DNA from: Chloroflexota bacterium
Lineage (GTDB): Bacteria; Chloroflexota; UBA5177
Direction of reading: 5' to 3'
Length of the DNA stretch: 29,724 nt
NCBI GenBank assembly: GCA_051004335.1
Contig: JBPCKK010000084.1
Coordinates: forward strand, 1 to 29,724
Shown here: positions 3,466 through 29,724 of the stretch, piece by piece
Layout: each line of letters opens with the position of its first letter
Position numbering within the stretch: the first letter of the stretch is position 1
Translations under genes and position numbers: made by a program
The notes under the pieces: generated by a model
Databases searched by the model: none
The model's input: the letters and a program-made list of their open reading frames with translations, nothing else
What the model was told of the DNA's origin: nothing

Positions 3466-3492
3466 GGCGTACTCATGCGCTTGCGGTACTGC

Positions 3493-5837: not shown

Positions 5838-6007
5838 AAATAAAATACGGAGAGGTCGTGAGCGATAAAGTGTCCCGCCGGCGGAGCGTCTAGTATCTAA
5901 CTGTGTCAGCTATGAGTAACAACTGATGCGGTGATAGTACTGTCACACGCCGTGACCGCATAGTCAAGCAGTTCGAACCCGGCGACTCGACGGCGGCGCC
6001 TTCCAAT

Positions 6008-6703: not shown

Positions 6704-6723
6704 GTATCCGCAGGTTCGGAGCG

Positions 6724-7323
6724 TCATTGATTCCGGCACACCTGTTGAAAGTGAGCGGTGATCGCGTGGGTAAGCACCATATGCGCGTCTTCGACCTGCC
6801 CATAGTCATTGCTTCCGACAACCACGCTGTGATCCACGAGGTCTTTGACCTTCCCGCCGGAGAAGCCGAGCAGGCCAACCGATCTCATGCCGAGGTCACG
6901 AGCCGCCTTGACGGCCTCGACAATGTTGGGAGAATTGCCGCTCGCCGTGATGACTATAAGTAAATCGTTCGGGCTGCCGTGGGTGCGCAATTGCTCCGAA
7001 AACACTACATCGTAACTTGCGTCGTTTCCCCAGGCGGTAAGCAGCGCCACATTGTCGGTGAGGGCCACTGCTCTCATGCGTCGCACGCCGTATTCGGTGG
7101 TCACGCCTCTCACTGTCTTGCCTAGGTCACAGGCCATATGAGAGGCGGTAGACGCGCTCCCCCCGTTGCCCACTACAAAGATTTGCTGATTATTCTCGTA
7201 CGCCGTCTGAATATACGTGATGATCTCGTGCGTGTCCTCAACGGACAGGGTATCAAGAACCGCGCTCAACGTACTCAAGTACGTCTTGATTCCCTTTCTG
7301 GTGTCAAATGCTAGGTTAAACAT
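6724..7323 (-). CDS. gmhA: Phosphoheptose (sedoheptulose-7-phosphate) isomerase, SIS domain
   Basis: GNGGSASTASHMACDL, ALTDN, ITASGNSPN and EDAH motifs. Adjacent to an HddA-like kinase with an 8 bp overlap. Confidence 0.88.
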   Translation of the reverse strand: MFNLAFDTRKGIKTYLSTLSAVLDTLSVEDTHEIITYIQTAYENNQQIFVVGNGGSASTASHMACDLGKTVRGVTTEYGVRRMRAVALTDNVALLTAWGNDASYDVVFSEQLRTHGSPNDLLIVITASGNSPNIVEAVKAARDLGMRSVGLLGFSGGKVKDLVDHSVVVGSNDYGQVEDAHMVLTHAITAHFQQVCRNQ

Positions 7324-8314
7324 ATCTATTCGCCTCTTCCACGTAAACTATCTTGCTGCCTTGCGGTTCAAATTGAAACGCCACTGGTTTCAGTGCGCAC
7401 AGTGCCGTTCGGATTTCCTGGTGGCGTTCCGGTGGGGCAAAGAGTAGCAAAAAACCGCCGCCGCCGGCTCCCAAAATCTTGCCGCCCAGCGCGCCATGCT
7501 TCCGGGCGCACTCATACCACTCGTCGATGCGCTGATTGCTGATGCCTGACGCCAGGCTTCTCTTACTCAGCCACCCCTGGTGGAGGATTTCGCCAAAGGT
7601 GCTCAGGTCATCACGGTAGAGCGCATCGCGGAGTTCGCGAGCCAGGCTCGTCATGCTTCGCAACGCCTCACGACGCGGACCAGTCTCTCCAGTGTTGCGT
7701 TTTTGCTCCTCAAGCACCGCGCCGGATGATCTGGTCATGCCGGTGTAGAGCAAGAGCAGGTGATCCTGCAATCCACGCTTCGTCGCCGGCGAGCAGATAA
7801 TCGGATCGACGAACACGCTCTCATCAGAATTGAACTGGATGTACTGCAGACCGCCGAAGGCGGCGATGTACTGGTCTTGCTTTCCTATCGGCTTGCCACA
7901 CACGTCGATTTCCACATGACAAGCCTCGGTAGCGAGTCGTGTGGCTCCGGCATGTTCGCCATGAAACGCATGCAACGCATTGAGCAATCCCACGGTATAG
8001 GTACTGGACGAGCCCAGACCGGTACCTTCCGACGGTATATCCGAAATTGAGGTTACTTCGAGAGCGCCACGCTGCTCGGTGAGCTTCAATGACTCGCGAA
8101 TGAGCTCGTTCTTGAGTTCATCCGCGCTGTTCACGATCTCGGTCACTGAATAGCTAGCTCGTATCTTGTTGTCGAACTTTTCATTGACATTGATGTAGAT
8201 GTATTTGTTGATAGCCGTGGTGACCACGGCGCCGGGTTCTGTGCGGTAAAAAGCGGAGAGATCGCTCCCTCCGCCGGCGAAGGTCACGCGCAACGGCGTC
8301 CGCGAGATGATCAT
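7316..8314 (-). CDS. hddA: GHMP kinase, D-glycero-alpha-D-manno-heptose-7-phosphate kinase-like
   Basis: Start moved to ATG 8314 (ATGA overlap with the galE stop): MIISRTPLRVTFAGGGSD. Contains PSEGTGLGSSS, GKQDQY and GGKILGAGGGGF. Confidence 0.87.
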   Translation of the reverse strand: MIISRTPLRVTFAGGGSDLSAFYRTEPGAVVTTAINKYIYINVNEKFDNKIRASYSVTEIVNSADELKNELIRESLKLTEQRGALEVTSISDIPSEGTGLGSSSTYTVGLLNALHAFHGEHAGATRLATEACHVEIDVCGKPIGKQDQYIAAFGGLQYIQFNSDESVFVDPIICSPATKRGLQDHLLLLYTGMTRSSGAVLEEQKRNTGETGPRREALRSMTSLARELRDALYRDDLSTFGEILHQGWLSKRSLASGISNQRIDEWYECARKHGALGGKILGAGGGGFLLLFAPPERHQEIRTALCALKPVAFQFEPQGSKIVYVEEANRYV

Positions 8315-9303
8315 GCCGCATACCCCGATGGATGGCTCTGCCGCCACGCCCAGGCGGTGCGCACCATGCCTTCCAGATCGGGGTAGCGTGGTGACCAACC
8401 CAGGTCCTGACGAATTCGTGCTGAGTCGGCAACGAGGCGAGCTGGGTCACCGGGACGCCGATCACCGGCTACTATCGGGATCGGCCGGCCGGTTACGCGC
8501 CGCACCATCTCGATGACCTCCAGATTCGAGTAGCCGTTGCTGTTGCCCATGTTGTACGCCTGGCCGCCCACCTGCTCGGCATGGGCAAGGGCCAGAAGGT
8601 GCGCCTGGGCAATATCGGCAACGTGAATGTAATCACGAATGCACGTTCCATCCGGCGTATCGTAGTCCGTGCCGAATAGCTGGATAGCGTCTCGCTGGCC
8701 GGTGGCTACCTCAAAGACTATGGGAATCAGGTGCGTTTCCGGTACGTGATATTCGCCGTGGAGATCGGTAGCGCCGCAGGCATTGAAGTAGCGCAGTGAA
8801 ATATAGGAGAGGCCGTATGCTGAGCGATACCAGCGCAACATGCCCTCGAAGGCCAGTTTGGATGCACCGTACGAGTTCACTGGGTCATGAGGGGCATCCT
8901 CGGGGATAGGCACGCTTAGCGGCTCGCCGTACACGGCGGCGGTGGAGGAGAAGACTATACGCTTCACGCCGGCTTCCACCATGGCCTCAAGGAGATTGAG
9001 GCCGCCACAGGTATTCACCGAATAAAAGCGACCCGGATCGCGGAGCGACTCGTCAATGAGCGCCTCGGCGGCGAGATGAACCACCGCGTCGACCGGGTTC
9101 TCCTGCAGCACCTGCTTGAGCCAGGGACCATCGGTGATGTCCCCCTGGATAAATCGGGCCTCCGGAGGTACGGCGGCGGCATGACCATGCCGTAGATCAT
9201 CGAGCGCTATCACCTCGTATCCCTCTGCAAGCAGGAACTCAGAAACGACGCTACCGATGTAGCCTGCTGCTCCAGTGACGAGCACTCGAGCGGGAGGCGT
9301 CAT
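8311..9303 (-). CDS. galE: UDP-glucose 4-epimerase
   Basis: GAAGYIG Rossmann motif, FSSTAAVYG, YGASK (YxxxK), RYFNACGA, PETHLIP and GTDYDTPDGTCIRDYIHV. Confidence 0.92.
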   Translation of the reverse strand: MTPPARVLVTGAAGYIGSVVSEFLLAEGYEVIALDDLRHGHAAAVPPEARFIQGDITDGPWLKQVLQENPVDAVVHLAAEALIDESLRDPGRFYSVNTCGGLNLLEAMVEAGVKRIVFSSTAAVYGEPLSVPIPEDAPHDPVNSYGASKLAFEGMLRWYRSAYGLSYISLRYFNACGATDLHGEYHVPETHLIPIVFEVATGQRDAIQLFGTDYDTPDGTCIRDYIHVADIAQAHLLALAHAEQVGGQAYNMGNSNGYSNLEVIEMVRRVTGRPIPIVAGDRRPGDPARLVADSARIRQDLGWSPRYPDLEGMVRTAWAWRQSHPSGYAA

Positions 9304-10241
9304 TAGCTAGCGGCGGTGCGCTGTGGCACACCCACGGCGGTGAGCACCCGGCCCCGAACGTATCCGGCGGTGGTGGCCAGCAGACCGGCGGTAATGGCCC
9401 CGGCGCGCGCCAAGCCATACGGATCGCGCGAGAGGACCGTGTCAGCCAGGCCGCGCATCACGCCGAGAGGAAGCGTACGAAAGGTATAGGCACGCTCGGA
9501 GGCCAATGCGTCCTTTGGACCCACCAGCCGCGCCACATTCGCCTTCGAACCGCCCTCGAAATAGCAACGGGAGAGGAAGTACGACCATCGTGCTCTGCTG
9601 GGCGGAACGCGGTGCTGGATGCGCGCTTGAGGAGCATAGAGCAGAACACTGCCCGGTAGTTGGTTCCGTAATCGAATGCACAGTTCGGTTTCGTCACAGC
9701 CGTATCCCAGTTGGAAGCCACCAACCGCCATGAGGACGTCACGGCGAAAAGACATGTTGCAGCCGAAGAGATTGCGGACCGGCGCCATGCCTTCCGGCAT
9801 TCCCCGATAATCGCAGCCCACGACCCAGCCAAACTCCTCGGGAAACCAGGAGGGACGGCCAGAGGCATACATCGGCTCAGTAGCGCCACCGACGCCCACC
9901 ACGGCCTCGTCCTGGTAGCCCGCGCACAACTGCTCGAGCCAATCTGGGCTCGCAATGGCGTCGTCATCCAGAAAGGCGACAACCTCGCCACGGGCGGCCG
10001 ACATACCACTGTTTCGGGCGCCGCCCAGTCCGTGAGCCTCGTTATTTTCCACAACGATGACGTTGCATAATTCTCGTCGCGCCTGCTCAAGCAAGGTTGG
10101 ATTGTAGTCGATGACGACGATCACCTCGCCGGGTGAAGAGGTCTGGTTCAATGCCGCCTCCACACTGGCGACTAGATCCCGCCATCGATCCATCGTGTAG
10201 GCGCAGATTACTACAGAAACGTTGTGGGCGTCTACCGTCAC
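9303..10241 (-). CDS. Glycosyltransferase family 2 (GT-A)
   Basis: VSVVICAY, GGARNSG, FLDDDA (DxD), GCNMSFRR and DETELCIR motifs. Confidence 0.92.
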   Translation of the reverse strand: MTVDAHNVSVVICAYTMDRWRDLVASVEAALNQTSSPGEVIVVIDYNPTLLEQARRELCNVIVVENNEAHGLGGARNSGMSAARGEVVAFLDDDAIASPDWLEQLCAGYQDEAVVGVGGATEPMYASGRPSWFPEEFGWVVGCDYRGMPEGMAPVRNLFGCNMSFRRDVLMAVGGFQLGYGCDETELCIRLRNQLPGSVLLYAPQARIQHRVPPSRARWSYFLSRCYFEGGSKANVARLVGPKDALASERAYTFRTLPLGVMRGLADTVLSRDPYGLARAGAITAGLLATTAGYVRGRVLTAVGVPQRTAAS

Positions 10242-11167
10242 GAAGCCACCACGTACATCCGATTGCGGGCATCAGCCTGGCGAAGGCCATTGCCCTTGCG
10301 ACGATCTTCCATACCCCTGTCTAGTCTTCGGCGTTCCAGGCCGCTGCGCCGGTCGAGGCCACTACGCCGGTCGAGACCTGTTCGGCGGCCATCCTCGGTG
10401 CGTTCGCCCTCCTGGACGCCCACGCCGGCATGGCCAGCCGGTATGTAGCGGGGGCTTGGGGCGAGGCGCTCCGACATGATCGTCTTGAGAACGCGCCAAC
10501 CGTCGCGGACCGCGTTCAGATTGCTCACGCCATGAATGCGGCTCTCCTCGAAGCTGGGAACTTCGACCACGCGGAGTCCAGCCTTGGCGATCCGTACATT
10601 GATGAGCGTCTCAACCTCAAAGCCGTCGCAATCTACATTCATGTGCGGCAGACACTGCGCCCAGAAGGCGTTGTAGCCGTAGCAGAGATCGGTGTAGTTC
10701 GTCCCAAACAATCCGTTTACCAGGGCATTCAAGCCCCGGTTTCCCCAGGTGCGCAGTCTGGTGATATCGGCGCTTCCACCCTCCGGCAAGAACCGCGAGC
10801 CCTTTACAAAGTCCGCGCCGGACAGCAGCGCGGCGACAAAGAGCGGAATCTCTTGAGGATCGGTTGAGCCATCAGCGTCAAGCATGACGATGATGTCGCC
10901 TTCGCAGGCGGCGAATCCGCTGATGAGCGCGTTGCCCTTCCCGCGGCCTGTTTGATAGAGAATCCGCACGTCGGGGCATAGACGGCGTGCTACATCAACG
11001 GTGTCGTCGGTGGAGTGTCCATCCACCACGATAACTTCATGAATGCCTTCTGGTACTCGGGTGAGTACGTGTGGCAAATTTCTCGCCTCGTTCAACGTGG
11101 GGATGATGAGGCTAACCTTCAGCCGGTCCGGCAGTATCGATATCCCGGGTCGTTCCATTGTCTCCAT
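10238..11167 (-). CDS. DPM1-like GT2 (polyprenyl-phosphate glycosyltransferase family) with Arg-rich repeat tail
   Basis: VSLIIPTLNEA, VVDGHSTD, MLDADGS, FVKGSR and FEVETLI motifs. First gene of the glycan operon. The start could alternatively be ATG 11158. Confidence 0.88.
   Translation of the reverse strand: METMERPGISILPDRLKVSLIIPTLNEARNLPHVLTRVPEGIHEVIVVDGHSTDDTVDVARRLCPDVRILYQTGRGKGNALISGFAACEGDIIVMLDADGSTDPQEIPLFVAALLSGADFVKGSRFLPEGGSADITRLRTWGNRGLNALVNGLFGTNYTDLCYGYNAFWAQCLPHMNVDCDGFEVETLINVRIAKAGLRVVEVPSFEESRIHGVSNLNAVRDGWRVLKTIMSERLAPSPRYIPAGHAGVGVQEGERTEDGRRTGLDRRSGLDRRSGLERRRLDRGMEDRRKGNGLRQADARNRMYVVAS
10292..10393 (-). repeat. Degenerate 18-bp coding repeat giving RR(T/S)GL(D/E) x3 plus DRRKG
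   Basis: The minus strand reads ggtctcgaccggcgtagt / ggcctcgaccggcgcagc / ggcctggaacgccgaaga, encoding DGRRTGLDRRSGLDRRSGLERRRLDRGMEDRRKG. Confidence 0.85.
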
Positions 11168-17997: not shown

Positions 17998-19272
17998 TTG
18001 AATCGCCTGATCTTGGTAGTTCTCGGCGCCATTGTGGTTCTCTCCGCGGTTACCATTGCCCGCGTAACCCGCGCATCTCCGCCGCCCGTCGGTGTGGGCT
18101 ATTGGCACACCGCGGGGACGCGCATTCTGGATGAGAACGGTCATCAGGTGCGTATTGCCGGCATCTCCTGGTACGGCATGGAAACGTCGTACTGGGTGCC
18201 TGCCGGCCTCGATTTTCAGTCGTATACCTCCATCATGGACCGCGTGCGTGCCCTGGGCTATAACTCAATTCGGCTCCCGCTCTCCAACGAACTCATCGAG
18301 ACCAATCCAGTGGTGACCGACCACGTGCGCGCGAACCCACAATTCCGCGGTTTGCATGCGCTGCAGGTTCTGGACGCCATCGTGCTCTATGCCCAGCGCA
18401 TTGGCGTGAAGCTCATCTTTGATGATCACATCTCCACGGCCACCCGTCCCAAGCAGGTCAATTATCTGCTGGAGCCACTGTGGTACACGGCGAATTATCC
18501 GGAGACCGCCTGGATCCATGATTGGGTGACGCTGGCCCAACGCTACCGGGGAAACACCGCGGTGATCGGCTTTGATCTGCGCAATGAGCCTCACACCAAT
18601 GGTCCAGGAGCGTGGGATCTGGAAGGATATCTCAATCGCGGGGCCACCTGGGGACCATACCAGGGCGCGAATAATCCGTCCACCGATTGGCGCCTGGCGG
18701 CCGAGACCGCCGGCAATGCCATCCTCGCGGTGAATCCGCATCTTCTGATCTTTGTCGACGGGATCCAGCTCTATCCTGATCCGACAGCGCCGGGCGGGGC
18801 TGTAGCCTATTGGTGGGGCAGCAATTTAGCGCCGGTTGCGCGCTATCCGGTTGTTCTCCGGGTTTCCCACCAGCTGGTCTACTCACCGCACGACTGGGGC
18901 CCGTGGAAGTGGGAAATGCGCTGGTTTCGCCAGATGACCTACGATTCTCTGCAGCGCGTGTGGCACGCCAAGTGGTCGTACCTGCTTGATGACCCCAACG
19001 CGTCGTATGCCGCGCCGATTTGGATCGGCGAGTTCGGCACCTGCACCAGCAACCCGCAATGCGTCGATGACCAGCGTCCGGGCAATCAGGCTACCTGGTT
19101 TCACTTGCTCCTGCGCTATCTCCGCGACCACCCAGAGATCGGCTGGACGTTTTGGGCGCTCAACGGGACCAATGCCAATGACCACGCCGCCAACAATGGG
19201 TTGCTCAATCCACAGTGGAATGGTCTGGCGAACGGCGCCCTACAGAACGACCTCACGAAGATCCAGAATTAA
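17998..19272 (+). CDS. Secreted glycoside hydrolase family 5 (endoglucanase E1-like), no CBM
   Basis: Signal peptide from TTG 17998. GYWHTAGTRILD...RIAGISWYGMET, acid/base DLRNEPH, YSPHDWG and nucleophile WIGEFG. Confidence 0.9.
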   Translation: MNRLILVVLGAIVVLSAVTIARVTRASPPPVGVGYWHTAGTRILDENGHQVRIAGISWYGMETSYWVPAGLDFQSYTSIMDRVRALGYNSIRLPLSNELIETNPVVTDHVRANPQFRGLHALQVLDAIVLYAQRIGVKLIFDDHISTATRPKQVNYLLEPLWYTANYPETAWIHDWVTLAQRYRGNTAVIGFDLRNEPHTNGPGAWDLEGYLNRGATWGPYQGANNPSTDWRLAAETAGNAILAVNPHLLIFVDGIQLYPDPTAPGGAVAYWWGSNLAPVARYPVVLRVSHQLVYSPHDWGPWKWEMRWFRQMTYDSLQRVWHAKWSYLLDDPNASYAAPIWIGEFGTCTSNPQCVDDQRPGNQATWFHLLLRYLRDHPEIGWTFWALNGTNANDHAANNGLLNPQWNGLANGALQNDLTKIQN

Positions 19273-20498
19273 AAGTCAGTCTGGCAACTGGGCGCCCGCT
19301 CTCCAGCGAAGAGCAGATCAGCCCGTGCCAGGGCGCCGGCGGTACATTCGTGCACCCGTCCGGCACGAGCAAGTGAGCTAAAGGTGGTTCCTCCCAAATA
19401 GGAGGCGCCCAAATCGGCAACCTCAAGTTGAAGATCGGGCTCTTTTGTTGTCCGCCGGCAGCCGGCCCCGTCCGCACTTGCCTCCAGCTCATAGGAGCCG
19501 TTGTTGTCCGGGCGGAAACGGTCGTGGACTTCGAGCACCAACCGGCCCTCGCTGGCGTAGTTTCTGCCGCGCAGGGTGGCGCAAATGTCCATGGGGCGCA
19601 CCCAGAGGCCATCATGGTAGCGGATGACGCGCAGCCTGCGTGAATCGGCCAGCATCCAGCGCAGCGGTTCGTCAACCGGGCACCGCGCGTCGATGTGGTG
19701 AATCAGGTCGATCTGCAGCACAAATGCCCAGAGGGCGGCGCGTGCGCTGGGGGTGCAGCTTACCAATTCCATCACCCGCAGCTCGCCGTTCGGCACTCCG
19801 TTGGTCCACTCATTCTTGATGCGATAGGCGATGTAGCCGTCCATCTTGCCCTTATCATTGCGATATACCGCGAAGAAACGGGGCCCTGCTCCGTCCCACC
19901 AGCGTTCGGGGTCGCGTTGCAGAGAGTAGTCCCAATACGCATCGGACCGGGTTATGGCTCCCGGCTGGAGGATGCGCGCCTTCTCATAGATCGCCGGCAG
20001 TATGGCCGCTGCCTCTTCGCGGGTGAACATTTCCACCTGTCCGCCGTGCTGGGGCGAAAAGGCATATTTGGCCGCTGCGCTATCCAGCGTGAAGCGCATC
20101 TCCGTGGTGGCCGTGCCGTAGCCATAGCGGCCGTAGATGATGCTTTCCGAGGCCCAGAGGATGGCCACCGCTTCTTCCCGCTCCTGGACGTCATCGAGGA
20201 TGCGCGTCATCATGCTGTTCAGGATGCCGCGGCGTCGATGAGTGGGCTGGACGGTGATCCAACTGACTCCGCCGGCCGGTATCTGCCGGTGGCCGGGGAC
20301 GGTGAGTTGAAAGGTGAAGGTCTCGCCGGTGCCCACGATCCGATCTCCATCGAAGGCGGCAATACTCCGCTCGAAGTTGAAAAGGGGACGTTCCTCCTCA
20401 AGCTCCTCGTCTTTGGCATGCTCGCCGAAGCCGGCGACCGCCGAACGGCTAAACGCTAGGAATTCATCGGGAATGATTGGGCGAAGGTCAAAATCCAT
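19269..20498 (-). CDS. Eis-like GNAT acetyltransferase (two GNAT folds plus SCP2-like domain)
   Basis: Start moved to ATG 20498 (MDFDLRPI). Contains ITVQPTHRRRGI, LWASESIIYGRYGYG, DEPLRWMLAD, DGLWVR, LGASYLGG and a terminal ...QTDF. Confidence 0.88.
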   Translation of the reverse strand: MDFDLRPIIPDEFLAFSRSAVAGFGEHAKDEELEEERPLFNFERSIAAFDGDRIVGTGETFTFQLTVPGHRQIPAGGVSWITVQPTHRRRGILNSMMTRILDDVQEREEAVAILWASESIIYGRYGYGTATTEMRFTLDSAAAKYAFSPQHGGQVEMFTREEAAAILPAIYEKARILQPGAITRSDAYWDYSLQRDPERWWDGAGPRFFAVYRNDKGKMDGYIAYRIKNEWTNGVPNGELRVMELVSCTPSARAALWAFVLQIDLIHHIDARCPVDEPLRWMLADSRRLRVIRYHDGLWVRPMDICATLRGRNYASEGRLVLEVHDRFRPDNNGSYELEASADGAGCRRTTKEPDLQLEVADLGASYLGGTTFSSLARAGRVHECTAGALARADLLFAGERAPSCQTDF

Positions 20499-20509
20499 AA
20501 CTGCGCATT

Positions 20510-21088
20510 CTACTCGTTCGGTGTGACCGCTTCGGGTTTGTCCTCCCTGATCGAGCGCAGACGCCAGAAGACGATGATGATGGCGCACAGCAGCAACGCA
20601 AAGGAAATGATTTTGAGCGTGTGCGAGTGGTGAAACTTGCCAAAGAGGGCCAGCACAGTGGCCCCGCCGAACCAGCCCAACAGCAGTAACGCGCCGGACC
20701 ATACCATCGCGGCCGGCATCAGTCCCCAGAGGAAGCGTCGAAACGGCATCCCCGCGCTGGAGGCGGCGAAGACCGTGGCGTTGCGCAATCCGGGAACGAG
20801 TCGAGCAACGGCCACTCCCCAGATGCCGTGTTGCCGGATCAACTCCTGCGCCCGGCGGGGAAGCACGCGATTCAACGCTTGCGCTCGCCCCACGCCATGG
20901 AACAGCACCGATGCGCCCAGTGTCATGCCGATGCTGGCCACAATCCAGGCAATGGACAAACGCACGGGGTGCTGTGCCTCGTGGATACCGGCGGCGACCA
21001 GCGATATGTTGCCGGGAAGCAGGAAAAGCCCGGCTTCCTCCAAGGTGAGGAGCGCACCGAGCCCCAGGTAGAACAGCAAGGGCGCCAT
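20510..21088 (-). CDS. DedA family membrane protein
   Basis: LEEAGLFLLPG and VAVARLVPGLRN motifs. Start ATG 21088, 8 bp after the upstream stop. Confidence 0.85.
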   Translation of the reverse strand: MAPLLFYLGLGALLTLEEAGLFLLPGNISLVAAGIHEAQHPVRLSIAWIVASIGMTLGASVLFHGVGRAQALNRVLPRRAQELIRQHGIWGVAVARLVPGLRNATVFAASSAGMPFRRFLWGLMPAAMVWSGALLLLGWFGGATVLALFGKFHHSHTLKIISFALLLCAIIIVFWRLRSIREDKPEAVTPNE

Positions 21089-21096
21089 GGCGGAGG

Positions 21097-21711
21097 TTAG
21101 CTTTTCAGGCCGTGGCCAGGGCTCTTGGTCACGCGATACACGTGGACGATGCGCTGTGCCACCGTGTAGTAGGTGGATAGGCACAGGACGACCAGAATGA
21201 TAGTCAACGCGGTCTCACGCGTTGCTGAGGCGAGGATCAAGCCGATAGCCAGGATGACAATACGTTCCGGCCGGGCCATCCAGCCCACTTCGCAGTCAAG
21301 ATTCAATACCTCGGCTCGAGCGCGCGCGTAGGATATCAGGACGGAACCGAGCACAACCGCATAGATAAGCCCGGCCTGTACATCGTCTCCCCGCACCAGC
21401 GCATGCCAGAGAAGGCCTAGACCCACGCTGGCTTCCGCCAAGCGGTCCAGCGTGGCATCAAGGAAATCGCCGAATTCGGAGGCGGCATCTTTCACGCGTG
21501 CCAGAGCTCCGTCGGCCATATCGAAAATCCCGGCAAAGAGCAGCAAAACACCGGCGACAAAGAGGTATCCGCCGCCAATAACCCAGGCGGTGAGGACGTT
21601 CAGTAACAGACCGATCACTGTAAGCGTGTTCGGCGAGATCCGGCTGCGAGCCACCGGTCCCATGAGACGCATGGAGATACGCCGTACTGTCGCCTCTAGC
21701 GGCGCAAACAT
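21097..21711 (-). CDS. CDP-alcohol phosphatidyltransferase, phosphatidylinositol-phosphate-synthase-like
   Basis: Signature DMADGALAR...GDFLDATLD, plus ISPNTLT, ISYARARAE and RPER motifs seen in PIPS/AIPS-type enzymes. Purine-rich SD before ATG 21711. Confidence 0.88.
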   Translation of the reverse strand: MFAPLEATVRRISMRLMGPVARSRISPNTLTVIGLLLNVLTAWVIGGGYLFVAGVLLLFAGIFDMADGALARVKDAASEFGDFLDATLDRLAEASVGLGLLWHALVRGDDVQAGLIYAVVLGSVLISYARARAEVLNLDCEVGWMARPERIVILAIGLILASATRETALTIILVVLCLSTYYTVAQRIVHVYRVTKSPGHGLKS

Positions 21712-21806
21712 TCTCTTCCCTTCTCTGTGCTCTTTCGAGCCTTGTGCATTATGACGTATTAGCGGGACGCTGTCGACAGGCACACAGCACCCTCACCTTC
21801 TGGACC

Positions 21807-22646
21807 TTAGCCCTGACCAAGAACAAGCTGTCGAACGGGCCGCGGCCACCGCTCTCTCCCCGGCCAGCGAGCGAGAGCCAATGAGCAGGATGTGGCAACC
21901 ACAACTACCACTACCCCTCCTGCCACATCGAGGAAATAATGATTGCCGGTAACCACCACCGCCAGCAGCATGAGTGGCGGATAGATGACGCCGATGGCGC
22001 GGATGGCCAACGGGCGCGCGAGGAAGACCAGGGACAATCCGGCGACCAGGGCCCAGGCAAAGTGGACGCTGGGCATGGCGGAGAACTCGTTATATCCCGC
22101 CTGACTCCCAACCAGATGCCCGCCGTTCGACAGGATGCCGAAGACAGTGTCATCAAAGGTGAACCGGTGATGATTGAACCACAAGTCGGTAGTAAGGCGC
22201 GGTGGCGCCACCGGGAAGTTCTCATAGACGATCAAGGCCAGCCCGTTGGTAAGGATAATGATGTTGCGCAGCAACGTAAAGTAGCGGTGGCGCCGGAAAT
22301 AGACCCAACAAGCAACCCCCAGCGTGAAAAAGACGTGGCCCAACACATAGATCGCGTTCATAATGTGCGCCATATCCAGCCAGGTAATGGTCAGGGCGAA
22401 GACGTGCCGCGTCTGTAGGAAGAACATCTGCCAGGCGGGTTCGTCCCAGAGATCGTGCGCTACTTCGAAGTTGACGAGCTGTCGCGCGTTCTCGATACCC
22501 TGCAGAGTGCCTCGTTGGGCAAAGAGTCCTCGCCCCAGGTCATCGCCCACTTCAAAAGAGATCGCCACCAATACCTGGAGGAAAAACGCCGGCCACGCCA
22601 CCAAGCGTGAGTTACGCCGTAACGCTCCGATCTCGATTGCGCACAT
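21807..22646 (-). CDS. PAP2 superfamily, AUR1/inositol-phosphorylceramide-synthase-like membrane protein
   Basis: FPVAPPRL, YNEFSAMPSVHFAW and TGNHYFLD catalytic motifs. GGAG SD 7 nt before ATG 22646; TTG 22604 is an alternative start. Confidence 0.85.
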   Translation of the reverse strand: MCAIEIGALRRNSRLVAWPAFFLQVLVAISFEVGDDLGRGLFAQRGTLQGIENARQLVNFEVAHDLWDEPAWQMFFLQTRHVFALTITWLDMAHIMNAIYVLGHVFFTLGVACWVYFRRHRYFTLLRNIIILTNGLALIVYENFPVAPPRLTTDLWFNHHRFTFDDTVFGILSNGGHLVGSQAGYNEFSAMPSVHFAWALVAGLSLVFLARPLAIRAIGVIYPPLMLLAVVVTGNHYFLDVAGGVVVVVVATSCSLALARWPGRERWPRPVRQLVLGQG

Positions 22647-23685
22647 CGTCCGTCTCCGTACCACTGGCCCATGCAGCCAACCGCTGCATCGTACCACCAT
22701 CGCGTGCCGAGCGATAGGCAGCGGTTATCGCGCTGACCAGGACTCCGGCCTCCGTGAAATTGCGGTCGGCTTCCGCTCGATTTGGGTCCAGCACATTGTA
22801 GCGGAACATCAACCGGAACCAATCCGGATGATAGGACGATTGGGTTAACCGGCCCGAGAAGGGCAGCTCACGGGAGCCGGCCCCACAGCGCACCACTATA
22901 CGATCGTCGTGGATATCGATTCTGCCCATCGTACCGATGATTTCGCCTGAATTGCCGCGCTGACCCGCCGTCCAGGAGAGGTCGATCTGTCCCCTCGCAT
23001 TCGGAAAACACAGATTGAGAGTCGCTTCATCTTCTACCGGCAGATTCCGTCGGTCGTTGGTCCGCATGTCCGCCCGTATGGCTTGCAACGGCGCCGCGGC
23101 CCAGCCAAGCAACAGGTAAAGCTGATGCCAACCATGGTCCAGCACGATTCCACCGCCGGCCTCAGCTAGATCTGTCCGCCAGTGCGGCGCCCAGCCTGTA
23201 TGGCCCAACGCGGCTCGCGTCCGCTCGGTGGAGAGCGCCAGGCGTTGCACCGTGCCAATTTCCCCGCTCCGCAGAACTGTCGCTACGTGTCGGTAGAGAT
23301 CAGAGTGCAGCCAGTTGTTCACGCTCACCACGCGGCTCCCACTTGCCTGACGAGCAGTAGACACTTGAATGTATTCCTCGTTGGTCAGCACAAACGGTTT
23401 TTCGCTAATGATGGACTCGATTCCGCGCACGCAGGCATCGACGATCAAATCGGCGTGGGTCCGAGGTGGCGAGCAAATGTCGAGGGTGTCAATGTCTGCA
23501 CCGGCAATCAGCTCCGTGGACATGCGATAGAGAGCAGCTTCGGGCAGCAGCTCAGCGGCGCGCGCCAAACGCTCCGCTGATGGATCCGCTACGGCAACTA
23601 CGTCGACCCCTTCAAAGGAGAGCAAAGCAGGGAGATGGCCGTGCTCAGCGATACTGCCGAACCCGACTAGACCAACGCGCCGCAC
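22612..23685 (-). CDS. Gfo/Idh/MocA family NAD(P)-dependent oxidoreductase
   Basis: Start moved to GTG 23685, 1 bp after the aminotransferase stop. Contains VGLVGFGSIA, ICSPPRTH, SEKPF and GGGIVLDHGWH. Confidence 0.9.
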   Translation of the reverse strand: MRRVGLVGFGSIAEHGHLPALLSFEGVDVVAVADPSAERLARAAELLPEAALYRMSTELIAGADIDTLDICSPPRTHADLIVDACVRGIESIISEKPFVLTNEEYIQVSTARQASGSRVVSVNNWLHSDLYRHVATVLRSGEIGTVQRLALSTERTRAALGHTGWAPHWRTDLAEAGGGIVLDHGWHQLYLLLGWAAAPLQAIRADMRTNDRRNLPVEDEATLNLCFPNARGQIDLSWTAGQRGNSGEIIGTMGRIDIHDDRIVVRCGAGSRELPFSGRLTQSSYHPDWFRLMFRYNVLDPNRAEADRNFTEAGVLVSAITAAYRSARDGGTMQRLAAWASGTETDDVRNRDRSVTA

Positions 23686-23686
23686 G

Positions 23687-25018
23687 TCAGACCGAACGCG
23701 CCAGCGCGACTTGAGCGCCCACCAGCACCTCTTCGATAATGTCGCAGCCCGCATCGGCCAGCTCTTTGGTAAGGACCAACGGCGGGTTGATGCGGAGCGA
23801 CGTGCCGGAGGGCATGACCAATAGACCTCGCTCGAGGAGCCGGAGGAAGATGCGCTGCATGTCGCTGCGCTCCAGTGGCCGGTGGGTCTCCGGGTGAACG
23901 AGCTCGATGCCGATGAGCAGTCCTTTGCCGCGAACGTCACCGACCATCGGTGATTGCTCGACCAATCGACGCAAACGACGCAGCATGTGCGCCCCTACCT
24001 CGGCGGCGTTCTCGCCCAAGCACTCGCGGCGCAGTGTCTCGACGGTGGCCAGCGCGGCGGCACAGGCCAGCGCGTTACCCCCGTAGCTGGAGGAGTTACC
24101 GCTGGGCTTGGCCCAGGGCTCGGCATGGGAAACCTCCTCCCGCGCGGCAATGCCGCTAATCGGGTAGCCGTTGCCAAACCCCTTACCCATGATCAGGATG
24201 TCCGGCAGGCAGTCCTCATCCATGAAGGCAAAGGCAGGACCGGTGCGATAAAAGCCGGTGATCATCTCATCGGCGATAAAGAGCGCGCCGATATCGTGGG
24301 CTACGTCCCGCAATAGGCGCAGGAAACCGGGCGGCGGCACAACGTTGCCACCGCGACCCTGAACCGGCTCAACAATGATGGCGGCAATATCCCGATTGGT
24401 GCCGTGCGCGATCATCTCCCGTAAGAAATCAATGGTTCGCTCGGCACAGTCGGGGCCGGCAAATGGGGAGTGTCGCGGATCGGCGTATGGCGCCAGGACA
24501 ACGCCGGGCGCCGATGCGCCGTAGCCCACCTGCTCGCCCTCGGAAAGAGACCGCGTACCCTCGGTCTTGCCGTGATACCCGCCCCAGAAACCCAGGACGG
24601 TGGACCGACCGGTGGCGCAGCGGGCCAGGCGCAACGCCGCCTCCACTGACTCGGCGCCGCCACTGTAGAACTGCATGCGGCTTAGTTCCGGCGGCAGGAT
24701 GCCGTGCAGAGCCCCGAGGAGTCCGATGCGCGCTTCGGAGGTGAAACCGCCGGCGGCGAGTTTTGCCGCCTGGCTGGCGACGGCTCGTGTCCAATCGGGG
24801 TTAGCATGGCCGATGCTGCAGACACCAATGCCCGCCATGAAGTCCAGGATGACGTTGCCATCCAGATCGAAGAGAACGCATCCCTCTCCGCGATCAATGC
24901 AAAGGCGAGCCCAGTGTGTGACGCTCTGCAGTCCGGGGGCGATCAGCCGGCGCTCGCGTTCGTATGCGGCGAGCGACTTGGGACCAGGAATGGGGGTAAC
25001 TACATGCGGAATAGGCAT
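23687..25018 (-). CDS. Class III PLP-dependent aminotransferase (GabT/ArgD-like fold)
   Basis: DLDGNVILDF, SGGAESVEAAL, IVEPVQGRGG, FIADEMITGFYRTG and PLP-lysine DILIMGKGFGNG. GGAG SD before ATG 25018; GTG 25078 is an alternative start. Confidence 0.92.
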   Translation of the reverse strand: MPIPHVVTPIPGPKSLAAYERERRLIAPGLQSVTHWARLCIDRGEGCVLFDLDGNVILDFMAGIGVCSIGHANPDWTRAVASQAAKLAAGGFTSEARIGLLGALHGILPPELSRMQFYSGGAESVEAALRLARCATGRSTVLGFWGGYHGKTEGTRSLSEGEQVGYGASAPGVVLAPYADPRHSPFAGPDCAERTIDFLREMIAHGTNRDIAAIIVEPVQGRGGNVVPPPGFLRLLRDVAHDIGALFIADEMITGFYRTGPAFAFMDEDCLPDILIMGKGFGNGYPISGIAAREEVSHAEPWAKPSGNSSSYGGNALACAAALATVETLRRECLGENAAEVGAHMLRRLRRLVEQSPMVGDVRGKGLLIGIELVHPETHRPLERSDMQRIFLRLLERGLLVMPSGTSLRINPPLVLTKELADAGCDIIEEVLVGAQVALARSV

Positions 25019-25102
25019 GGACTTGCTCCGAAAAAGGTGAGGATACCGTGCGTCGTCGTCGCTCCCGCGTCGAGGCACGCGCCAGCATAGCAGAAGAGGG
25101 GC

Positions 25103-25822
25103 CTACGACTTGACCGGCTTCTTCGCCTGCTCCTTTAAGCGGTACCCGACACCCCACACCGTCTCGATGAAACGCGGGTTGGATGAATCATCATTGAGTT
25201 TGGCCCGCAGCCGGCGGACATGCACATCAATCGTGCCGCTGTCGCCGAAAAAGTCATAGCCCCAGACGTCATGGAGCAGTTGCTCCCGGGTGAACACCAC
25301 ACCCGGCCGGCGGGCCAGCTCGACGAGCAGATCATACTCCTTTGCTCGGAGCGTGATCGTTTCCCCAAACAGGCGAACTTCACGCTTGTCGGTGTCGATT
25401 GTCATCTCACCGTAGTCCAGAAGTGTACTGGAATTCTCCGCCGCCGGTGCGGTACGCGCCCGACGCAGGATCGCCTTGACGCACGCCACCAATTCGCGGG
25501 GAACGAATGGTTTGGTCACATAGTCATCGGCGCCCAGCTCGAGACCAACGATCTTATCCTCATCACCCTCCCGGGCGGTGAGCATAATGATGGGCACATC
25601 GCTGCCCCGACGGATCTCACGGCAGACTTCCCAGCCGTCGATGTCCGGAAGCATGATGTCCAGTACGACCAGGGACGGCATATTCCGCCCAATTATCTCC
25701 AACGCCTCCGCGCCGCTGCGGGCGTGAGCCGTGGTGAATCCCTCGCGCTCCAGGTACATCGCAATCAGGCGAATGATCCCGGGCTCGTCATCCACGATCA
25801 GTACGTCGCCTTTGCTAACCAT
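25103..25822 (-). CDS. OmpR/PhoB family DNA-binding response regulator
   Basis: LIVDDE, phosphoacceptor LDIMLP, MLTA, DDYVTKPF, and winged helix with IDVHVRRLRAKL and IETVWGVGY. GGAGG SD before ATG 25822. Confidence 0.95.
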   Translation of the reverse strand: MVSKGDVLIVDDEPGIIRLIAMYLEREGFTTAHARSGAEALEIIGRNMPSLVVLDIMLPDIDGWEVCREIRRGSDVPIIMLTAREGDEDKIVGLELGADDYVTKPFVPRELVACVKAILRRARTAPAAENSSTLLDYGEMTIDTDKREVRLFGETITLRAKEYDLLVELARRPGVVFTREQLLHDVWGYDFFGDSGTIDVHVRRLRAKLNDDSSNPRFIETVWGVGYRLKEQAKKPVKS

Positions 25823-25905
25823 CATTCCTCCCCAGGTCGCCGCATCCGTACGAGCCGACACTGGACGGATAGTTGGTCGGGTAGTACAGGACTTGACTCT
25901 TGCCG

Positions 25906-26061: not shown

Positions 26062-26688
26062 ATGACTCACCGCTTCCTTTTCCCGAAGTCCGCCGTTGCT
26101 GTCCTCGCGCTGATGGTCGCTCTGGCGCTCAACCTAGCGCCGGCGGGCGCGCAGACCGTTCCGATCGTCCATAGCTATGACCGAGTGCATTTCATCGGGC
26201 AGGTGAGCAACGTGCTCGGCTCATCGACGATACCCGATTCTCTCTCTCTGCAGCTCGGTACCCTCGCGATTGACCTGCGCACGATCCCACGGACCACCGT
26301 CAAGGCGAATAGCGCGGAGGCTCAGGTCGAAGGGCTGGTCAATGGCGACTATGCACTGGTCACCGGCCGCCGAGTCAAGCGCGCGTGGGTCGCCGTTCGA
26401 ATTGTCTACGATGTGCGCCCGTTTGGGCCGCTGCGCCAGTTTTCGGGCACTATTCTGCGAGTGTCGCCCAATAACGTTCGGCTGCTCCTCAAGCTGGATA
26501 CCGGTCACAACCTGTGGGTACGCGCAAGCCCCAAAGCGCACTTCCGAATGGATGGCCATCTCCTGGATGTACCGCCTGTTTTCACTAAGGGAGAGACAAT
26601 CCAGATTCTCGCTTTGAACGACTATGGTTGGACGGCCTACGAGATCGATCTGCACTCGCCGTTCTACGGTAATTGGCGTTTGCGCTAG
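26062..26688 (+). CDS. Secreted protein with two DUF5666-like repeats
   Basis: Signal peptide ending APAGA. Two repeats, FIGQVSNV...GDYALVTG...WVAVRI and FSGTILRV...GETIQI...WTAYEI. Confidence 0.7.
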   Translation: MTHRFLFPKSAVAVLALMVALALNLAPAGAQTVPIVHSYDRVHFIGQVSNVLGSSTIPDSLSLQLGTLAIDLRTIPRTTVKANSAEAQVEGLVNGDYALVTGRRVKRAWVAVRIVYDVRPFGPLRQFSGTILRVSPNNVRLLLKLDTGHNLWVRASPKAHFRMDGHLLDVPPVFTKGETIQILALNDYGWTAYEIDLHSPFYGNWRLR

Positions 26689-26930
26689 CTCGCTACCTTC
26701 TTGCTGTCTTCCAGTGCGCTACCCGTAACGCGCCACTTGAGAAAATGCAAGCGTTCCCATTCGCTCAGACTGAAGGACGGCCCTTCGTCCAGTCGGAACT
26801 CGCGACTGCAGGGCGGGGAACAGAATGGACCGACACGTCCATTCTCGACCACGCGCCAGTACCAATTTTCATTGGAATTGTCAACTGGCTCTCCCCGTGG
26901 GGAGCCGCACTTCAAGCACTTATATTCCAT
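26685..26930 (-). CDS. Small TRASH/MYM-like zinc-finger protein
   Basis: MEYKCLKCG...GPFCSPPC (C-x2-C-x28-C-x3-C). GAGG SD 8 nt before ATG 26930. Its stop interlocks with the DUF5666 stop in CTAG at 26685-26688. Confidence 0.65.
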   Translation of the reverse strand: MEYKCLKCGSPRGEPVDNSNENWYWRVVENGRVGPFCSPPCSREFRLDEGPSFSLSEWERLHFLKWRVTGSALEDSKKVAS

Positions 26931-27101
26931 GGGCATTGCCTCGATCTAGAGTATGGCAATCAGTATAAAGCTTCCCGGCGAAAAAGCAATGTACTTTCGG
27001 GCACAAAAGTGGAAGGACATACGCCCTACGGCGGCGGCGTGTGTTCCTACTTACGTCGGGACGCTACCATAGAGCCACAGAGAACAGGACGCGGGAAAAA
27101 C

Positions 27102-27695
27102 ATGCAACGGGGCGATGTCATCGTGTTGCGCGCCCACAAGTCGGACGGCACGGTCTACCGCTGGTGGCGGGCAGCCGTGGAGTCGATTGACGCCGAGCGC
27201 GTAGTGGTGGTGAACCGAGTTGGCGACCGGGTGGATGGCCCGGGCGGTGGGTGGTCGTGGAAGCACGCTCTGCGCGCCACCTACTGGTTCGATCGCTCGT
27301 ACAACCTGGTCGAGGCGTACCATGCTGATGGCCGGCTCAAACAGATCTATATCCATATCGCCACGCCGGCCGTTATCCAGACCAACTCGCTGAACTATAC
27401 CGACCTGGAACTGGACGTGATCAAACGGCCGGGCCAACCTCTACGCATCGTGGACGAGGATGAGTTCGACGAGGCGGCGCGCTGCTACGGATACACGCCC
27501 GAATTTCAGTGCTCCTGTCGGGAAGCGGTGGACGAAGCTATGCGGTTGGCGAAGTCTTGGCGCTGCACCGGCGCGCCCACAATGCCCGACAAGCGCTCCT
27601 CCCGCCGTTGGCGGAGGCGCCGGCGGCGATCCACTCAGGACGTACGCACGGAGGTCCCGGTCGCCGACTCGAGTACACGTAGCAACGACGTATAG
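27102..27695 (+). CDS. DUF402 family protein (FomD/Ntdp-like nucleotide phosphatase fold)
   Basis: Start moved to ATG 27102: RAHKSDGTVYRWW, YWFDRSYNL, IYIHIATP, YTDLELDV and VDEDEF motifs. Confidence 0.85.
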   Translation: MQRGDVIVLRAHKSDGTVYRWWRAAVESIDAERVVVVNRVGDRVDGPGGGWSWKHALRATYWFDRSYNLVEAYHADGRLKQIYIHIATPAVIQTNSLNYTDLELDVIKRPGQPLRIVDEDEFDEAARCYGYTPEFQCSCREAVDEAMRLAKSWRCTGAPTMPDKRSSRRWRRRRRRSTQDVRTEVPVADSSTRSNDV

Positions 27696-28528
27696 TCGCA
27701 TCTGCCGAATCCGGCGGCTTGGGCCACGCTATACAGCTGGCGGGCCAGGGCCGTCAGAAACAGGGGCACGCCGGAGTCGGCGCCCAGATCGAGGGCCAAG
27801 CCCAGGTCTTTGACCAACAGATCGGTCATGAATCCCGGCTCAAACGTCCCGCTGAAGGCGCGTCGAGGGAAGTGGTTGGAGAGTTGCCAGCTCGCTCCCG
27901 AGCTGGCGCCAATGACCTCGGCCATGGTTGCCACGTCCGCACCCGCCTTAGCGCCGAGGACCAACGCTTCAGCAGTAGCCGCCGCGATGGCGCCGGCCAG
28001 CACGTTGTTTACCAGTTTGATCACCTCTCCGGAGCCCGAGGGACCAACATGGAAGATTTTCCTTCCCATGGCCTCCAGCACCGGACGAACCCGCGCCAGA
28101 GCTTCCGCTTCGCCGCCCACCATAACGCTTAGAGTTCCTGCGTCGGCGCCCAGCGTTCCTCCGCTGACCGGTGCATCCAGAAACTGGACGCCCTGTGCCT
28201 GGCAACGCTCGGCAAGGGACCGGCTCATCTCGGGCGCGATCGTGCTCATATCCACCACGATCAAATTCTTGCCTGCTCCGGTCAGGATGCCCTCTGATCC
28301 GCTGACCAGCGCCTCCACATCCGGAGAGTTCGTCACACAGAGAATGAGCACGTCCACCATCGCCGCCAGTTTCCCTGGTGAGTCGGCCCAACCGGCTCCC
28401 GCCGCACGCAGTTCATCGGCGCTCTCCGGTCGCCGTGCCCAAACGGTGAGCGGAAAGCCCGCCTTCATCACATTGCCGGACATGGGGCGACCCATCGCCC
28501 CGAGGCCAATAAACCCAACGCGATCCAC
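27635..28528 (-). CDS. NAD(P)-dependent beta-hydroxyacid dehydrogenase (3-hydroxyisobutyrate dehydrogenase / tartronate semialdehyde reductase family)
   Basis: GFIGLGAMG, DMSTI, FLDAPVSGG and catalytic VIKLVNN. GGAGG SD before GTG 28528. Confidence 0.92.
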   Translation of the reverse strand: MDRVGFIGLGAMGRPMSGNVMKAGFPLTVWARRPESADELRAAGAGWADSPGKLAAMVDVLILCVTNSPDVEALVSGSEGILTGAGKNLIVVDMSTIAPEMSRSLAERCQAQGVQFLDAPVSGGTLGADAGTLSVMVGGEAEALARVRPVLEAMGRKIFHVGPSGSGEVIKLVNNVLAGAIAAATAEALVLGAKAGADVATMAEVIGASSGASWQLSNHFPRRAFSGTFEPGFMTDLLVKDLGLALDLGADSGVPLFLTALARQLYSVAQAAGFGRCDYTSLLRVLESATGTSVRTS

Positions 28529-28603
28529 ACCGTCCTCCCAATTGCAGTAATGCCTTGAGCATACGCGCTCAGGACAGCGTTGCTAGACTTGACCGAGGTT
28601 TCT

Positions 28604-29724
28604 ATGCTCGACAGTTTCCGTAGCCGGCTCGTTATCTCGAATCTGCTGATCACGCTGCTCGGGCTCCTGGTCATCGTTGCCGTCTTCTTTAACGTGCTGG
28701 CCAATCGGAGCCAGGATGTGAAACGCAACGCGCTCACCACCGATTCACGCCTGGTGGCCAACCAGCTGGAAGATTACTTTCAGAGCCGAGCCGGAGCCGA
28801 ACTGACCGTACAACAACTGGTGAATCAGACCAGTCGCGCGTTGCGGGTGCGCGTGATCGTCGTCCGACGTGGCACCAACAAGATCATCGCCGACTCCAGC
28901 CGGCGCACGCCGTTCTTTAACGGGAGTTGGACACTCGACCGGCGCGCTCTCGATCGTGCACAAACGGCGACCGGCGTGGCACGTGACGGCAAGGTTCAGA
29001 CTTTTCAGACTCCGCTAGAGGGCACGCGCGGCCACATCATTGGCGCCGTCGTTCTGGTGGCCAATGTGAGTGACGTTCGGCCGAGCCTGGGTGACTTTCG
29101 CGACCTCTTCCTTATCGTGCTGGGCACGGCTGCTCTTGTCTGGCTTGCCATTGGTCTGTTTTTCACCTTCTCGATCTCGCGGCCGTTGCTGCGCGTGATT
29201 CATGCGACCCAGCGGATGGCTCGGGGGCAGTACGACGCTCGTGTGCCACCTGGTGGCAACGGGGAGATCGCCCGTCTGGCCAGCAGTTTCAATGTCATGG
29301 CCCACCAGGTGCAGGGAAGTAATCGCACCCTCAAAGACTTCGTAGCCAACGTCTCCCACGATCTACGTACACCATTGACCATGATCACCGGCTTCTCCAC
29401 CGCGCTGATCGACGGCACGGCCCGCCCCGAGGAGGTGGAGGAGGCGGCCACGGTCATCCACGACGAAGCGGTGAAGATGCAGCACATGGTGGACGATCTT
29501 CTGCAGCTCACTCGTCTGGAATCCGGGCTGTTTTCCTTCCGCCGTCAGCCTGTCGAGGTTCAGCTTTTTGTGCAGAGTGTCATCGAGCGCGTTGCCCGAA
29601 CCCACAGCGGCACGGCGGTGGCTCAGATACTCAATCAGGCGCCGGCCGGGGTTCCGCCGATCGCCGTGGCTCATGCACACTTCGAGCGGGCCCTGCGTAA
29701 GTCGTTGGAGAATGCCCTGCAATA
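28604..29724 (+). CDS. HAMP-domain sensor histidine kinase (3' end runs off the window)
   Basis: Not in the ORF track because no stop lies in the window. Manual translation from ATG 28604 gives two TM segments, HAMP (SRPLLRVIHATQRMARG...EIARLASSFNVMA), H-box FVANVSHDLRTPL and the start of the N-box (ENAL). Confidence 0.93.
   Translation, partial: MLDSFRSRLVISNLLITLLGLLVIVAVFFNVLANRSQDVKRNALTTDSRLVANQLEDYFQSRAGAELTVQQLVNQTSRALRVRVIVVRRGTNKIIADSSRRTPFFNGSWTLDRRALDRAQTATGVARDGKVQTFQTPLEGTRGHIIGAVVLVANVSDVRPSLGDFRDLFLIVLGTAALVWLAIGLFFTFSISRPLLRVIHATQRMARGQYDARVPPGGNGEIARLASSFNVMAHQVQGSNRTLKDFVANVSHDLRTPLTMITGFSTALIDGTARPEEVEEAATVIHDEAVKMQHMVDDLLQLTRLESGLFSFRRQPVEVQLFVQSVIERVARTHSGTAVAQILNQAPAGVPPIAVAHAHFERALRKSLENALQ

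Follow-up and report, generated by a model that had tools for sequence, protein, structure and literature searches.

We analysed a 29,724-nt stretch of DNA, hereafter the window, which is contig C84 (JBPCKK010000084.1) of a Chloroflexota metagenome-assembled genome (MAG; GCA_051004335.1). Seven genes lie head to tail on its minus strand at positions 19269-25861, as found in a Pfam search of the window proteins. The operon combines an aminotransferase and a dehydrogenase with genes of inositol-lipid type, and it probably makes an inositol phospholipid with an aminated head group. The seven genes, from the first of the row, and a nearby histidine kinase are as follows.

25103..25861, minus strand: response regulator of the OmpR/PhoB family (Pfam Response_reg and Trans_reg_C), first gene of the row
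23687..25078, minus strand: class III (omega) pyridoxal-phosphate (PLP) aminotransferase, AT (PF00202, 312 bits)
22612..23685, minus strand: Gfo/Idh/MocA NAD(P) oxidoreductase, Gfo (Pfam)
21807..22646, minus strand: PAP2_3 (AUR1/Ipt1-like) membrane enzyme (PF14378, 116 bits against a cut-off of 27)
21097..21711, minus strand: CDP-alcohol phosphatidyltransferase (CDP-OH_P_transf) resembling phosphatidylinositol-phosphate (PIP) synthase (PF01066, 60 bits against a cut-off of 22)
20510..21088, minus strand: DedA/VTT membrane protein (PF09335, 43.4 bits against a cut-off of 33.9)
19269..20498, minus strand: Eis-like acetyltransferase with GNAT, GNAT-like and SCP2 domains (Pfam)
28580..29722, plus strand: HAMP-HisKA histidine kinase, cut by the window end (Pfam)

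An earlier reading of the same DNA, made from the sequence alone (the sequence-only reading), had described seven co-oriented, tightly packed genes that overlap or are separated by about 1-95 bp. Pfam confirmed all the domains, and the coordinates were right except for the choice of some start codons. With starts chosen to agree with orthologs, the intergene gaps are 24, 1, -35, 95, 8 and 11 nt. None of the enzymes of the operon reaches an NCBIfam equivalog cut-off. The host MAG consists of 1.5 Mb over 163 contigs and is about 65% complete.

The CDP-alcohol phosphatidyltransferase of the window is the second PIP-synthase paralog of its genome, because the host genome (G000) has a separate canonical PIP-synthase operon on contig C48. 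That operon contains the gene of a myo-inositol-1-phosphate synthase (MIPS), two HtrB-type acyltransferase genes, a PimA-like family 4 glycosyltransferase (GT4) gene and a PIP-synthase-like gene. The window itself shows no gene for an inositol-phosphate synthase, and the C48 operon resolves this concern. The MIPS gene was detected with PF01658, and a search with PF07994 had missed it. The MIPS-acyltransferase-GT4-PIP synthase operon is kept in both families examined, that of the host and its sister family. The C48 operon (L006:4157-10134) has the form of a canonical, actinobacterial-style early phosphatidylinositol mannoside (PIM) operon, in which a DUF1611 protein is encoded after the PIP-synthase-like gene.

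The window transferase scored 135.3 bits with the PIP synthase model NF045883, below the cut-off of 170, and the housekeeping PIP synthase on C48 was likewise under this cut-off with 128.9 bits. With the archaetidylinositol phosphate synthase model the window transferase scored 140 bits (cut-off, 180). In a search of 1.8 billion representatives it formed one cluster at 50% identity, and the next relatives showed at most 51% identity and half the score. A tree was built from 97 PIP-synthase-like proteins. The operon-linked transferases were monophyletic in it (support 100/99), with a long stem and very short internal branches, and did not group with the housekeeping copies that their genomes also carry. 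The single PIP synthase of the sister family was placed as their sister, with moderate support (93/87).

The signature D-x2-D-G-x2-A-R...G-x3-D-x3-D is complete in the window transferase, and D88, D91, G92, A95, R96, G105, D109 and D113 are invariant in 29 of 29 clade members. In PgsA1 of Mycobacterium tuberculosis, inositol phosphate is bound by R94, S132, Y133, K135, R137, R152, R155 and R195 (Grave et al. 2019, PMC6506517). In an alignment to PgsA1 the paralog keeps R94, S132, Y133, R137, R152, R155 and R195, and K135 is replaced by Arg, which is also common there in other PIP synthases. We compared the 29 clade members with 148 other PIP-synthase-like proteins. An Asp (D106) stands directly after the second Gly of the signature (G-D-F-L-D) in 29/29 clade members and in 0/148 of the others, a change from Ala to Asp. 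Further clade changes inside the catalytic signature are Leu to Ala between the first and second Asp and Ser to Ala after the third Asp. The latter position is equivalent to A90 of PgsA1, a residue that the A90Y mutant places at the border of the inositol ring (Grave et al. 2019, PMC6506517). D106 lies four residues, that is one helical turn, before the A90 equivalent, and helical periodicity would place both on the same face of the helix. Since an acidic residue by the acceptor ring, together with unchanged phosphate-binding arginines, would be expected for a ring that bears an ammonium group, the acceptor may be an aminated inositol phosphate.

In a sample of 401 Chloroflexota genomes, with E < 1e-40 as the ortholog threshold, Gfo was found only in the family of the host (8/11 genomes, not counting the host) and in a second family of its class (5/5). 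The gene order is kept in eight related genomes from six genera of the host's family, and AT, Gfo, PAP2_3, the CDP-alcohol transferase and DedA are present in 8/8 of these loci, except that PAP2_3 is missing in one same-genus genome (L011/L004). The co-occurrence of AT, Gfo, PAP2_3 and the transferase, which the sequence-only reading had proposed as a check, thus holds in the host's own family, but in that family only and with one member lacking PAP2_3. Counting the host, the PIP-synthase paralog and Gfo are both present in nine own-family genomes and both missing in three. The own-family genomes with Gfo have two PIP-synthase copies, and the three without it have one copy of the housekeeping type (44-50% identity).

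A Gfo alignment was used in a pattern search of GTDB genomes. It brought up AT-Gfo pairs whose identity is 46-48% for AT and 31-39% for Gfo, in MAGs that carry the labels Desulfobacterales, Deltaproteobacteria, Binatia and unclassified. Their common module encodes a haloacid dehalogenase-type (HAD) hydrolase, a nucleotidyltransferase, a 286-aa protein, AT, Gfo, a long CDP-alcohol transferase and a flippase-like LPG_synthase_TM protein, which in L037 directly follows Gfo. MIPS adjoins the module in three of these loci. The archaeal model for inositol-phosphate cytidylyltransferase/DIPP synthase (IPCT/DIPPS) has two halves, which the nucleotidyltransferase and the long transferase match weakly. 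The 286-aa protein is of the ATP-grasp type and similar to inositol-trisphosphate 5/6-kinase (ITPK-like), and in Bacteroidota it is fused to a nucleotidyltransferase, a CDP-alcohol transferase or a HAD protein. In all the loci found, which represent at least four lineages, AT lies directly upstream of Gfo. The same AT-Gfo module is thus present in two non-homologous inositol-lipid architectures, and this recurrence is the strongest argument that the pair acts on the inositol head group. A query with the ATP-grasp protein in five Chloroflexota genomes did not find the kinase, the HAD phosphatase or the cytidylyltransferase; a window form without these three is consistent with a route in which inositol phosphate itself is aminated and then transferred by a reaction of the PIP-synthase type.

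Two arrangements were seen at the edges of these cassettes. Right after the CDP-alcohol transferase in L034 (8972-10927), L035, L036 and L040, an LPG_synthase_TM/HpnL-like domain is fused to an HpnK-type YdjC deacetylase. In two Desulfobacterales MAGs (L038:4006-6368 and L039:6838-9990), an HpnH equivalog (adenosyl-hopene transferase) opens the cassette and immediately precedes MIPS, and OEP and MMPL transporter genes lie downstream of the cassette in L038.

The best NCBIfam models for AT are those of the acetylornithine and GabT types, at about half of their cut-offs; with the GabT equivalog TIGR00700 it scored 258 bits, under the cut-off of 506. A PDB sequence search gave GabT-type enzymes of about 35% identity as its closest solved relatives. 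The equivalents of GabT K268 (the Schiff-base lysine), D239 (the PLP-binding Asp) and R398 are kept, and the first two are invariant. GabT R141, which binds the substrate carboxylate, is replaced by Lys in AT of Chloroflexota and of the other phyla, and the gate residue E211 is replaced by Arg in Chloroflexota and by Thr in the other phyla. Because R141 and E211 are replaced, AT is probably not a GabT, and we take this evidence for that point only. The Arg at the E211 position was also considered as a hint of phosphate binding and is kept only as a weak lead, as AT of the other phyla has no Arg there.

In Gfo, the family motifs E95-K96-P97 (EKP) and D183 with H187 (D-x3-H) are invariant. The match to IolG (TIGR04380) covers only the N-terminal half, with 56.3 bits against a cut-off of 355. 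An AlphaFold2 (AF2) model with a pLDDT of 87.6 confirmed the Rossmann fold and the C-terminal fold of the family. The neighbours of this model in Foldseek span the whole family (TM 0.75-0.81, 16-22% identity) and include GFOR, anhydrofructose reductase, DgpA, GenD2/KanD2 and scyllo-inositol dehydrogenases. We propose that Gfo is an inositol(-phosphate) dehydrogenase and AT a keto-inositol(-phosphate) transaminase.

In the PAP2_3 protein the motifs PS-x-H and H-x3-D are invariant in eight orthologs wherever the sequence is covered. It scored 24.9 bits with the phosphoinositol dihydroceramide synthase equivalog NF052609 (BT_1522 type; cut-off, 480). PDB sequence searches with the single protein and with a profile gave no match, and its AF2 model (pLDDT 57.7) was too poor for a structure search. 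The closest Atlas clusters are actinobacterial PAP2_3 proteins, some of which carry a fused GT87 mannosyltransferase or wax-ester synthase/DGAT domain. These fusions hint at inositol glycolipids or neutral lipids as the substrates of bacterial PAP2_3 enzymes. In the operon, PAP2_3 may be either a head-group phosphotransferase or a lipid-phosphate phosphatase.

The DedA gene follows the CDP-alcohol transferase gene in 8/8 related loci, and its product scored 28 bits with the UptA equivalog (cut-off, 300). Since a flippase-like protein fills the same place in the other phyla, it is plausible that DedA is a lipid translocase. The Eis-like protein scored 418 bits with the subfamily model NF002367 (cut-off, 259) and 283 bits with the Eis equivalog NF002368 (cut-off, 576). 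Its gene is the last in 7/8 related loci, and in the remaining one, L013, the contig ends before that position. The other phyla have no counterpart of it and carry the YdjC/HpnK-type deacetylase instead; as a deacetylase domain stands in their cassettes, this suggests that N-acyl chemistry may belong to the pathway, and N-acetylation by the Eis-like enzyme is plausible by analogy.

The response regulator is under all NCBIfam equivalog cut-offs. It lies upstream of the operon in 6/8 related loci, and L012 and L013 do not have it there. The HAMP-HisKA kinase is located three genes away on the opposite strand, and a kinase occupies the matching relative position in L003 and L004. The two proteins may be partners, and the operon may be under two-component control.

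From these observations we infer the following route, including its substrate, the ring position modified and the order of the steps, as well as flipping, acetylation and regulation. Myo-inositol phosphate would come from the host's own MIPS, whose gene is present elsewhere in the genome. Gfo would oxidise one ring hydroxyl to a ketone, and AT would convert the ketone to an amine, giving inosamine phosphate, which the PIP-synthase paralog would couple to CDP-diacylglycerol. PAP2_3 would then remove the remaining phosphate or transfer the head group to a different acceptor at the outer face, and DedA would translocate the lipid. N-acetylation of the amine by the Eis-like enzyme would either pull transamination forward or give the final form. 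Comparative support exists for two of these steps only, namely oxidation/transamination and transfer by the paralog. Charge remodelling would be a reasonable consequence, since phosphatidylinositol is anionic and amino-phosphatidylinositol would be zwitterionic.

We put the probability that the operon makes a modified inositol phospholipid with an aminated head group by the steps listed at roughly 55%. It is a real, conserved operon and appears to represent bacterial inositol-lipid biosynthesis in a new form, and the support for the aminated head group, purely genomic, is good. An aminated inositol-type head group, made by the dehydrogenase and the transaminase and attached by a PIP-synthase-like enzyme, had already been proposed in the sequence-only reading. 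This proposal gained from the second PIP-synthase paralog, from its co-presence with Gfo and from the AT-Gfo pairs in MIPS cassettes, and it lost ground in the sister family, where AT-Gfo stands without lipid genes.

Several points weigh against such a lipid. The main one is that the sister family keeps AT-Gfo (AT 65%, Gfo 45% identity) together with one PIP synthase and unrelated neighbours. Conservation within the host's family is partly plain synteny and of limited weight, because unrelated flanking genes, a GH5 cellulase gene and the DUF402 gene, are also syntenic and related genomes do not count as independent cases; little can be learned from it about Eis, DedA or the regulator. The sole support for including the Eis-like gene is its adjacency to the operon within one family. 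Gfo and AT are far under every equivalog cut-off and match no substrate-specific model, and the Foldseek search with the Gfo model gives no pointer to the substrate. Class III aminotransferases usually use aldehydes or omega-amines, and to our knowledge the known inosose aminotransferases are of the DegT type. In the sister-family locus (L017:10558-13260, G190), AT-Gfo is followed by a 900-aa protein and then an ABC transporter ATPase, with no lipid genes; the 900-aa protein matches only uncharacterised Chloroflexota proteins, some of them with DUF7408.

The alternative that survives best, although we consider it rather unlikely, separates two products. The PIP-synthase paralog, PAP2_3 and DedA would make a second pool of ordinary inositol lipid, for example by AUR1-type inositol-phosphoryl transfer, while AT-Gfo would make a soluble aminocyclitol or amino sugar that is acetylated by Eis. 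The sister family speaks for it, as its AT-Gfo has no second PIP synthase, PAP2_3, DedA or Eis nearby, and so do the GT87-fused actinobacterial relatives of PAP2_3, which suggest work on ordinary phosphatidylinositol glycolipids. On the other hand, each of the 12 family genomes has either both the paralog and Gfo or neither, unrelated phyla have AT-Gfo between inositol-activation and lipid-transfer genes, and the acidic residue in the catalytic motif is unique to the paralog.

Less probable again is an aminated head group that is not inositol, in which Gfo and AT would use another phosphorylated polyol or sugar accepted by the diverged transferase. The lack of a substrate-specific model for Gfo or AT and the score of the transferase under the PIP-synthase equivalog cut-off leave room for it, but the inositol-phosphate-binding positions are all retained and the partner families in the other phyla (MIPS, ITPK-like ATP-grasp and IPCT/DIPPS-like proteins) are specific to inositol.

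We give little credence to the idea that AT-Gfo modifies hopanoid side chains, for example from ribosylhopane to amino or tetrol forms, and that the cluster decorates hopanoids. It draws on the cassette of the other phyla, which adjoins HpnH (525 bits) and has HpnK and HpnL-like genes fused or adjacent, and on the occurrence of squalene-hopene cyclase in the sister family and in G040, a genome of the host's genus. However, the cyclase was not found in G091, which is 91% complete and has the full cluster, no hpn genes lie near the Chloroflexota cluster, and the transferase is PIP-synthase-like and presumably uses CDP-diacylglycerol; a hopanoid role of the Chloroflexota cluster is unlikely. Least credible is a catabolic AT and Gfo (for GABA, polyamine or sugar) with the lipid genes as mere neighbours, because in spite of the GabT and acetylornithine types being the best NCBIfam/PDB matches of AT, other residues stand in place of GabT R141 and E211, the neighbouring genes include no succinate-semialdehyde dehydrogenase or transporter, and AT and Gfo are 1 nt apart and stay paired across phyla inside inositol cassettes.

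Full-text literature searches turned up no publication that describes aminated inositol phospholipids or a cluster with this set of genes. Bacterial inositol-lipid clusters have been divided into two types, that of Bacteroides thetaiotaomicron and a putative 'alternative' CDP-inositol type (Heaver et al. 2022, PMC9246714). The PIP-synthase route of Bacteroides comprises BT_1523, BT_1525, BT_1522 and BT_1526 (Heaver et al. 2022, PMC9246714). In common with this route and with mycobacterial PgsA1 (Rv2612c), the host has MIPS and the window has a PIP-synthase-like transferase with all the inositol-phosphate residues. As in Bacteroides, an AUR1/PAP2-type enzyme like BT_1522 stands alongside and the cluster includes a putative translocase, which is DedA in the window and the LPG-synthase homologue BT_1521 in Bacteroides. 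The window differs in that its transferase is a second paralog, under the equivalog cut-off and with the unique signature Asp, in that a dehydrogenase, a class III aminotransferase and an Eis-like acetyltransferase are added, and in that MIPS and the PIM genes of the host lie in a separate operon.

The 'alternative' cluster of Bacteroides vulgatus and Prevotella contains an NTP transferase, a CDP-alcohol transferase and a HAD protein (Heaver et al. 2022, PMC9246714). The cassettes L034-L038 carry exactly these genes plus MIPS and ATP-grasp, with AT-Gfo added, whereas the window has no NTP transferase, HAD or ATP-grasp gene and uses PIP-synthase logic. The CDP-inositol lipid route of Rhodothermus is reportedly related to the 'alternative' cluster.

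The pmrHFIJKLM (arn) pathway, which places 4-amino-arabinose on lipid A, follows a similar logic of oxidation, transamination, N-acylation, attachment to a lipid carrier, flipping and transfer, possibly with two-component control as well. Its enzymes are not homologous and its carrier and acceptor are others, so that the likeness is an analogy only; a general Pfam scan assigned no operon protein to the ArnA, ArnB, ArnC or ArnT families. In GenD2/GenS2, KanD2/KanS2 and NtdC/NtdA, a Gfo/Idh/MocA enzyme and a transaminase likewise turn a ring hydroxyl into an amine. However, Gfo of the window has 21-22% identity to GenD2/KanD2 and lies among membrane-lipid genes. The partner transaminases of these pairs, unlike AT of the window, are not known to be of class III.

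Inositol phospholipids are rare in bacteria and matter for envelope structure, for host interaction and as mycobacterial drug targets. If the proposal is true, an aminated inositol head group would define a new lipid class of different charge, a new biomarker for soil and sediment lipidomics, and a natural example of a PIP synthase that changed its acceptor specificity. In addition, the cluster points to a possible role for the PAP2_3 enzymes that stand beside PIP synthases. In 2019 the mycobacterial PIP phosphatase was still described as unidentified (Grave et al. 2019, PMC6506517). The prediction is directly testable by heterologous expression and mass spectrometry. A wider view, which we advance tentatively and trust less than the pathway itself, is that several phyla make undescribed inosamine phosphate lipids, that a portable AT-Gfo pair was joined independently to both bacterial inositol-lipid routes, and that in Chloroflexota a duplicate PIP synthase gained an active-site Asp, giving a zwitterionic replacement for phosphatidylinositol.

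Scans of the window for promoters and terminators gave sites no more numerous than in shuffled sequence. Between the regulator and the kinase (window 26062-28528) lie three genes that are syntenic in relatives and encode a 208-aa protein without a family, a 340-aa DUF402 protein and a 3-hydroxyisobutyrate-dehydrogenase-like protein. The DUF402 protein weakly matches FomD/NtdP-like nucleotide hydrolases and could conceivably be a hydrolase of CDP-alcohol or CDP-diacylglycerol. A long putative glycosylation operon occupies the minus strand at 1-11167, with a family 2 glycosyltransferase (GT2) gene at 10238-11167 and further large open reading frames. In long-read MAGs some genes are broken by frameshifts or stops, such as Eis in G091 (L010:12705-13932) and most of the cassette in L040 (7095-10998), and the squalene-hopene cyclase is likewise split in G040 (C2:985726-987590); these are probably assembly errors and not pseudogenes. 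DNA nearly identical to the window occurs in metagenomes of rock, sediment and soil from several studies.

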